Assembly (NCBI RefSeq): GCF_041886205.1
Contig: NZ_CP169029.1
Strand: one strand, 5' to 3'
Origin: Escherichia coli
Lineage (GTDB): Bacteria; Pseudomonadota; Gammaproteobacteria; Enterobacterales; Enterobacteriaceae
DNA: 64,000 nucleotides
Each line of letters begins with the position of its first letter. The stretch's first letter is position 1. The position numbers were made by a program, and so were the translations under genes. Shown here in pieces: positions 34,056 to 34,460 of the stretch. Under the pieces are notes generated by a model, which saw only the letters and a program-made list of their open reading frames with translations, made no database searches and was not told where the DNA came from.

Positions 34056-34460
34056 GCCCTTTAATTTGGAAATAAAACTTTAATCACCAATATTGAAAAT
34101 GTCACACGCAGATAAATCCAACTTTCAATATTGTTAAGTTCCTCACCAATATTGAAAACATGGCGTAGAAAAAAGAAATTTTCAATATTGCTTTATGGAT
34201 CACCAATATTGAAAGTCAGATGCTATTTTTTTACTCACAACATAACAAACTGATTAATAATCAAAATTAACGAGAAAAGCGCCCTCTATTCACCCGAAAC
34301 AAAAATGTGATAACAATCACAGAATGCAGCTTATTGAATACCCATTATGAGTTAGCCATTAACGCGTCCACGAGGTTAATAATAATTATATTAAATGTTA
34401 ACAAAAATAAAACAAACGGGAACGCAAAATAAATATTCGTTTTCACAGTGGAATTAACTC
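34056..34460. promoter_or_regulatory. Divergent fix/cai control region with five copies of the palindromic core caatattg (CaiF-site-like)
   Basis: tcaccaatattgaaa at 34084, 34143 and 34200; inverted ttcaatattg at 34124 and 34181; AT-rich region. Confidence 0.75.

Follow-up and report, generated by a model that had tools for sequence, protein, structure and literature searches.

MetJ acts on met boxes, which are contiguous tandem 8-bp palindromes (AGACGTCT) present in two to five copies, each bound by a ribbon-helix-helix dimer. At deoP2 (CytR and CRP) and melAB (MelR and CRP), the sites of a pathway-specific regulator are interdigitated with those of CRP, and expression requires both proteins. 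MerR-type activators bind as a dimer to a dyad within a 19–20-bp promoter spacer. For the cai–fix control region, the 1998 study of Buchet reportedly placed CRP site 1 at −41.5 of cai and CRP sites 2 and 3 at −69.5 and −126.5 of fix, and is said to have reported three CRP footprints and no more. The cai and fix start sites reportedly lie 289 bp apart, and a deletion result is said to have indicated that cai transcription depends on a 50-bp segment that overlaps the fix start.

The regulator of the region, CaiF, is a small helix-turn-helix activator that turns on the divergent operons caiTABCDE and fixABCX when carnitine-derived crotonobetainyl-CoA is present. The published CaiF sites, F1 and F2 (Buchet 1999), are described in the quoting passages of PMC12083890 and PMC3680233 as an 11-bp perfect inverted repeat with 13 bp between the arms, and these secondary citations report binding of purified CaiF to both sites in footprinting or gel shift. 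CRP and CaiF are described as co-activating both operons, cai and fix. At the LEE1 P1 promoter of EHEC and EPEC, GrlA reportedly activates via the −10/−35 spacer (Islam 2011, as quoted in PMC10877973 and PMC4730234).

The repeat array and its paired operators

The window (the whole stretch of 64,000 nucleotides of Escherichia coli DNA that was analysed) contains a repeat array in the fixA–caiT (cai–fix) divergent control region, as the sequence-only reading had proposed. The genes concerned are as follows.

33222..33992, minus strand: fixA, 256 aa, first gene of fixABCX
34461..35975, plus strand: caiT, 504 aa, first gene of caiTABCDE
41697..42092, minus strand: caiF, 131 aa, whose product is the regulator recognising the repeats and belongs to Pfam CaiF_GrlA

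The caiF gene lies ~7 kb from the array. CaiF matches Pfam CaiF_GrlA with 28.5 bits (cut-off 25) and GrlA (PDB 4KT5) with E=0.001, and is not MerR-like. The interval to which the array had been assigned, 34056–34460, covers nearly the complete fixA–caiT intergenic region (33993–34460). This 468-bp spacer is 98% identical to positions 41932–42402 of K-12 MG1655; its best identity among complete RefSeq E. coli genomes is 98.9%, and over 10 kb around it the identity to an E. coli chromosome reaches 99.9%. An A/T-rich stretch at 34233–34241, which separates the array from CRP site 1, is rearranged relative to K-12, with a net loss of 3 bp. In E. coli SFE8 (NZ_CP051219.1; locus L082, 1740–2749), a module of IS26, bleO and a Tn3 fragment adjoins the last CaiF half-site (~34217 in the window); in this natural promoter truncation caiT is left with the cai-proximal 245 bp only, and the array and the fix side are displaced.

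The palindromic 8-mer CAATATTG is found exactly at 34088, 34126, 34147, 34183, and 34204, all five copies being unchanged in K-12. The flanks alternate in orientation as first described (TCACCAATATTGAAA at 34084, 34143, and 34200; TTTCAATATTG at 34123 and 34180), and the measured start-to-start steps of 38, 21, 36, and 21 bp agree with the earlier estimate of about 21 and 37. The array spans 34084–34214. Five copies of CAATATTG fall within 124 bp, where the chance expectation for the entire 64 kb is ~1.5. The window holds nine copies in all, against 1.49 ± 1.2 in dinucleotide-preserving shuffles (n = 100), none of which reaches nine, and the Poisson probability that any 131-bp stretch of the window holds at least five copies is estimated at ~1e-12. 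The extended 11-mer CAATATTGAAA has five exact occurrences in the window, all of them inside the array.

Other matches were rejected. The copies of CAATATTG at 23375, 48712, 57971, and 62599 have neither TCAC and AAA flanks nor a partner and are regarded as chance matches, as are the partnerless one-mismatch 11-mers at 41984, 59220, and 63361, which likewise have no TCAC/AAA flanks. The first of the latter (CAATATCGAAA, 41984–41994) is a one-mismatch half-site within the caiF coding sequence (codons for HFDIE), probably there by chance. The spacer of the cai promoter contains a possible sixth half-site, a partial one (gcttATTGAAt, 34329–34339, 7/11), which was dismissed as chance because its conservation is absent outside Escherichia.

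Copies 2–5 form two operators.

34123..34157, no strand: fix-proximal CaiF operator, copies 2 and 3, working label F1; TTTCAATATTG-N13-CAATATTGAAA exact; dyad at 34140
34180..34214, no strand: cai-proximal CaiF operator, copies 4 and 5; TTTCAATATTG-N13-CAATATTGAAA exact; dyad at 34197

The 35-bp pattern TTTCAATATTG-N13-CAATATTGAAA has these two zero-mismatch occurrences in the window, where 0.00 are expected. An inverted repeat with a 13-bp gap is thus found at 34123–34157 and 34180–34214; copy 1 has none. Copies 2 and 3 and copies 4 and 5 reproduce the published operator sequence letter for letter, bearing out the earlier identification of CaiF, and therefore the array is already known. As judged by this identity, four copies are the published CaiF operators, and it is almost certain that the array consists of CaiF sites. 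Since the array is the textbook CaiF operator, it teaches nothing new by itself. Control by CaiF, CRP, and FNR together had been suggested; the CaiF part stands on the operator match, and the FNR part does not carry over to the array, FNR acting mainly via caiF expression.

Within an operator, the 21-bp step follows from the geometry (11 + 13 − 3 bp). The half-site consensus common to all classes is CAATATTGAA; right-hand half-sites always carry an inner TCAC, and left-hand half-sites have no TCAC. A MetJ-like CaiF dimer on each 8-bp palindrome was also considered and judged unlikely for a helix-turn-helix protein, because the palindrome halves are just 4 bp apart.

Operator number and spacing across cai loci

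To compare the array with its relatives, cai loci were gathered with CaiT as the query, one genome per species, and fixA and caiF were located in each. The canonical layout is represented by 28 caiF-encoding Enterobacterales loci, in which positions were counted from the fixA ATG. Every Enterobacterales locus with both caiF and a recovered cai–fix spacer has at least one TCACCAATATTGAA half-site in the spacer (L019 and L041 are cut before the spacer and were left out of this count). The complete array, an orphan half-site plus operator, is found in 28 Enterobacterales loci. Neither the array nor the half-site occurs at the cai loci of Shewanella, Campylobacter, and Ferrimonas, for which caiF was undetected within the fetched flanks.

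The number of full operators in the 28 loci is one, two, or three, giving three, five, or seven copies. One operator is found in Yokenella, Trabulsiella, Pluralibacter, Atlantibacter, and two further Enterobacteriaceae genomes; two operators in Escherichia, Citrobacter, Salmonella, Phytobacter, Pseudocitrobacter, Intestinirhabdus, and Providencia; and three in Proteus, with its seven copies spaced 38/21/38/21/38/21. The cai-proximal operator in particular was found in Escherichia, Citrobacter, Salmonella, Phytobacter, Proteus, and Providencia, and was absent from the Yokenella, Trabulsiella, Pluralibacter, and Atlantibacter loci compared. Hafnia, Edwardsiella, Leminorella, Limnobaculum, and Serratia (L022, L043, L046, L049, L050, and L053) have a single TCACCAATATTGAA half-site composite only.

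Several side observations accompany these loci. In the Hafnia/Edwardsiella group the spacers are 650–770 bp long, caiF lies beyond fixX, and a conserved block, CAATAGAAATACCATGATTC, is found ~40 bp from the half-site. In Budvicia (L048, positions 298–352) the 27-bp half-site composite occurs twice in tandem. Entomohabitans teleogrylli (L037) is an exception that keeps a paired operator and not the orphan core. About 38 bp to the fix side of its operator stands TCAC-CCGACGTCG-CTGAAC, with a different perfect 8-bp palindrome, CGACGTCG, and the flanks AAATAAAAA...TCAC are kept around the altered orphan core.

The sequence-only reading had seen a strict periodicity in the spacing, suggestive of cooperative or phased binding; taken as a model, the five copies would form one phased cooperative lattice, in which the 21/37-bp alternation is itself functional. 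The 21-bp core spacing within an operator corresponds to 2.0 helical turns and is invariant in the 28 loci, and copies 1 and 2 keep an almost constant step of 38 bp, both of which speak for such a lattice. The remaining distances do not follow it. The second operator, where present, begins 34 to 38 bp after the first and drifts among genera over that range; steps of 36–38 bp correspond to 3.4–3.6 turns. Operators are 57–59 bp apart, or 5.4–5.6 helical turns, and therefore lie on roughly opposite DNA faces, out of phase. In addition, copy number is 3, 5, or 7, and the cai CRP site lies 101–120 bp beyond the last half-site, with no common helical phase. Strict periodicity was therefore not upheld, and a five-site lattice is quite improbable. 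On the sequence comparison, the regular spacing is accounted for by operator geometry and module number; a fixed geometry is supported within the operator, as well as for the placing of copy 1 and the first operator relative to each other and to the fix promoter.

CRP sites, promoters and the unpaired copy 1

The elements surrounding the operators are listed below; start sites are inferred throughout.

34070..34078, minus strand: conserved block GTTTTATTT (AAATAAAAC on the plus strand), at a constant distance of 5 nt from the copy-1 TCAC flank
34077..34105, minus strand: fix promoter-like site from a consensus scan; −35 GTGACA at 34105–34100, −10 TAAAGT at 34082–34077
34084..34098, plus strand: copy 1, orphan R-type CaiF half-site TCAC-CAATATTG-AAA, without a left partner 21 bp upstream
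34132..34147, no strand: CRP-like site TGTTAagttccTCACC, lying between the half-sites of the fix-proximal operator; centred on 34139.5; 2/10 mismatches
34189..34204, no strand: weak CRP-like site TGCTTtatggaTCACC, lying inside the cai-proximal operator; centred on 34196.5; 4 mismatches (3 in K-12)
34306..34321, no strand: perfect CRP site TGTGATAACAATCACA (CRP site 1), −41.5 from the inferred cai start
34343..34348, plus strand: likely cai −10 hexamer CATTAT, judged from sequence, with the cai start placed at about 34355

Given the inferred start sites, the three CRP or CRP-like sites fit the 22-bp pattern TGTGA-N6-TCACA, with the mismatches listed, at class I/II distances. CRP site 1 is kept with at most two mismatches in nearly all CaiF-encoding genera; its spacer reads TAACAA in the window and TACCAA in K-12. 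The cai start is put at ~34355 because CRP site 1 reportedly lies at −41.5. From the CRP-like positions, together with those reportedly published, we infer that the fix start lies at about 34070. The centres of TGTTAagttccTCACC and TGCTTtatggaTCACC then lie at −69.5 and −126.5 from the inferred fix start, and the two are probably the published CRP sites 2 and 3, respectively. Inferred starts at 34355 for cai and 34070 for fix reproduce all the reported positions from the sequence, and the reported start-to-start distance of 289 bp fits since the spacer of the window is 3 bp shorter than that of K-12. The cai −10 region (34336–34348, GAATACCCATTAT) is conserved from Escherichia to Proteus, and its AATACC part recurs in conserved blocks of the Hafnia group. 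On the other side, the fix leader (33993–34070) is near-invariant across Escherichia, Citrobacter, and Salmonella and varies in more distant genera; an in-frame GTG at 34055 would lengthen the fixA ORF by 21 codons, and a terminator-like hairpin was called at 34019–34035 on the strand opposite the fix leader.

The two weak CRP-like sites are concentric with the CaiF operators (dyads 34140 and 34197); in each of them the TCAC flank makes up the better half. Each operator would accordingly combine a CaiF site and a weak CRP site about one dyad, with TCAC, as deduced from sequence, forming the inner flank of the right-hand half-site. CaiF would contact the DNA at ~±10.5 bp and CRP at ~±5.5 bp from the shared dyad. 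The CaiF contacts would thus lie half a turn further out than those of CRP, on the opposite face, and co-occupancy would be sterically possible. In this arrangement the upstream operators may supply CaiF and CRP to the fix promoter and to the cai promoter about 160–215 bp away.

The CaiF sites might instead serve mainly as an anti-silencing platform from which CaiF and CRP displace H-NS from the AT-rich spacer, without a fixed-geometry contact to RNA polymerase. H-NS represses carnitine metabolism genes, the homologue GrlA works in the H-NS-silenced LEE system, and the operators, about 158–215 bp from the cai start, have no phase-conserved distance to the cai promoter. However, H-NS repression is probably exerted at caiF expression, according to a review, and such a platform would not account for the constant placing of copy 1 within the fix core promoter. 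We consider an anti-silencing role of this kind improbable.

The fix promoter-like site is the sole one that the consensus scan finds on the fix strand. Its spacer is 17 nt long (34099–34083) and contains copy 1 entirely, so that, for this consensus-match promoter, copy 1 lies between the −35 and −10 hexamers; the spacer is shorter than the 18–20 bp of an over-long spacer. The core half-site of copy 1 (34088–34098) corresponds to −18 to −28 relative to the reconstructed fix start. A degenerate left partner 21 bp upstream was sought and rejected, with 2/8 core bases matching in the window and none in any genus. The sequence-only reading had not remarked that an odd total of five leaves one copy, in the fix core promoter, unpaired.

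Copy 1 is present with at most two mismatches in all 28 canonical CaiF-encoding loci. Its distance to the fixA ATG is 93–99 nt in 26 loci (the others being C. sedlakii, +82, and Providencia heimbachae, +129), and the step to the next copy measures 38 bp in 23 loci, 39 bp in four, and 40 bp in a single locus. The longest run of the spacer conserved at 90% or above among Escherichia, Citrobacter, and Salmonella, 34081–34099 (TAATCACCAATATTGAAAA), is copy 1 with its flanks. In Providencia, copy 1 is perfect, while a half-site of the neighbouring operator shows 3–4 mismatches. On the fix-sense strand, a composite (T/G/C)TTCAATATTG-GTGA-N5-GT(T/A)TTATTT (34070–34098 in the window) is kept in 20 of 20 representative CaiF-encoding genera (L004–L065). 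Together with the lone half-site of the Hafnia/Edwardsiella group, these patterns suggest that copy 1 is selectively maintained.

The copy-number variation bears on where copy 1 came from. Copy 1 might be a non-functional leftover from tandem duplication of a 57–59-bp operator module, the paired operators alone being of importance: module number evolves (one, two, or three operators), spacer length rises in steps of ~57–59 bp, and the three R-type copies have a 16-nt direct repeat in common. Such a leftover would also agree with the secondary literature covered, which describes two CaiF sites only and makes no mention of copy 1; a full-text search including ChIP-exo, DAP-seq, and SELEX on CaiF returned nothing past this two-site description. 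A relic should decay, however, and copy 1 is conserved at least as well as the footprinted half-sites amid unalignable surroundings. Its distances to fixA and to the next copy are fixed, and it is the sole half-site kept in the Hafnia/Edwardsiella group. The modules share little sequence beyond the motifs, and any duplication is therefore old; a recent tandem duplication was rejected as their source, the pairs being ~70% identical, nearly all of it from the motifs. A shuffle control on module identity is uninformative for the same reason, that identity stems almost wholly from the motifs. There is thus only a slim chance that copy 1 is a leftover.

Copy 1 might also be conserved for a reason other than CaiF, either as part of the fix core promoter (spacer or −35 contacts with sigma-70) or because a different protein, for instance CRP or H-NS, binds there; its likeness to the CaiF half-site would then be inherited and without importance. 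It does overlap the fix core promoter, and together with the conserved GTGA-N5-GTTTTATTT block it makes up a composite. Where GTGACA is missing, TTCAAT within the half-site, 17 nt upstream of TATTTT, could be a weak −35, and a CRP-like match with 4 mismatches, on the level of the TGCTTtatggaTCACC site, overlaps the TCAC flank of copy 1. Yet the conserved part is the exact CaiF consensus CAATATTGAA, including positions without a −35 or −10 role, and promoter spacers normally vary freely. The CRP-like match has a poor left half (TAAAA), and the 1998 study reportedly described only three CRP footprints. A conservation unrelated to CaiF is unlikely.

Copy 1 is best explained by a bound CaiF protomer, because the exact CaiF consensus is conserved at a fixed place in the fix promoter. 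Overall, the five cores are very probably CaiF half-sites arranged as two operators and a promoter-embedded copy 1. In this scheme all five CAATATTG cores would be CaiF recognition half-sites of consensus CAATATTGAA, and copy 1 would hold one CaiF protomer beside RNA polymerase, as reported for GrlA in the LEE1 P1 spacer. The conservation makes a function for copy 1 somewhat probable; action in a GrlA-like spacer mode, argued by analogy, is a tentative proposal. The lone half-site may bind too weakly to matter, and a protein bound in the promoter spacer could equally repress.

Many genera have no GTGACA, this −35-like element being restricted to the Escherichia clade, and the −10-like TAAAGT is likewise not kept across genera; the promoter register outside the clade is therefore uncertain. 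In genera without a GTGACA −35, the GTTTTATTT block is the best −10 candidate by sequence. With this GT(T/A)TTATTT block as the −10, the half-site would lie at ~−23 to −33, nearer to a −35-overlapping (class II-like) position.

These loci can be described by a 2n+1 plan, in which n operators (n = 0–3) accompany an obligatory fix-promoter half-site. That this half-site, and not the footprinted upstream operators, is the ancestral and essential CaiF contact is a speculative reading. The embedded half-site would, by analogy, act via a spacer or −35-proximal protomer, as proposed for GrlA. The plan may also explain why cai transcription reportedly needs the 50-bp segment overlapping the fix start. 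If CaiF occupies copy 1, the model of cai/fix activation changes, and CaiF would have a spacer-proximal mode in common with that proposed for the virulence regulator GrlA. Copy 1 would then also be an unrecognised tuning element in L-carnitine biosensors built on the fix promoter (PMC12083890 and PMC8085414).

Comparison with known systems

The closest system, CaiF at F1 and F2 (Buchet 1999, Mol Microbiol 34:562), is the same locus with the same sequence, and four of the five copies are F1 and F2. Unlike these sites, copy 1 is without an inverted partner and lies inside the fix core promoter. The present comparison adds a variable operator number (1–3) and a constant extra half-site to the description of F1 and F2. 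This is a modest addition: neither the conserved promoter-embedded fifth half-site nor the 2n+1 architecture was found described in the secondary literature covered.

GrlA at LEE1 P1 belongs to the same Pfam family, CaiF_GrlA, and its target is reported to be the spacer between −35 and −10, where copy 1 lies. The two are likened by position and family. At LEE1 the spacer has a suboptimal length of 18 bp and no dyad symmetry, whereas the fix spacer has the optimal 17 nt, and GrlA at LEE1 has no upstream operator array, whereas cai–fix has one. MerR-type activators differ in that CaiF is outside the MerR family, the fix spacer is of optimal length, and copy 1 is a single 11-bp half-site. The 17-nt fix spacer is thus unlike the 18–20-nt spacers for which MerR- or GrlA-type remodelling is invoked.

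In contrast to CytR/CRP and MelR/CRP, the CRP-like site here is concentric inside the inverted repeat of the regulator and not beside it. The likeness to MetJ is in a repeated perfect 8-bp palindrome whose copy number varies between operators; the CaiF cores, however, are 21–38 bp apart, have asymmetric flanks, and are recognised by a helix-turn-helix protein.
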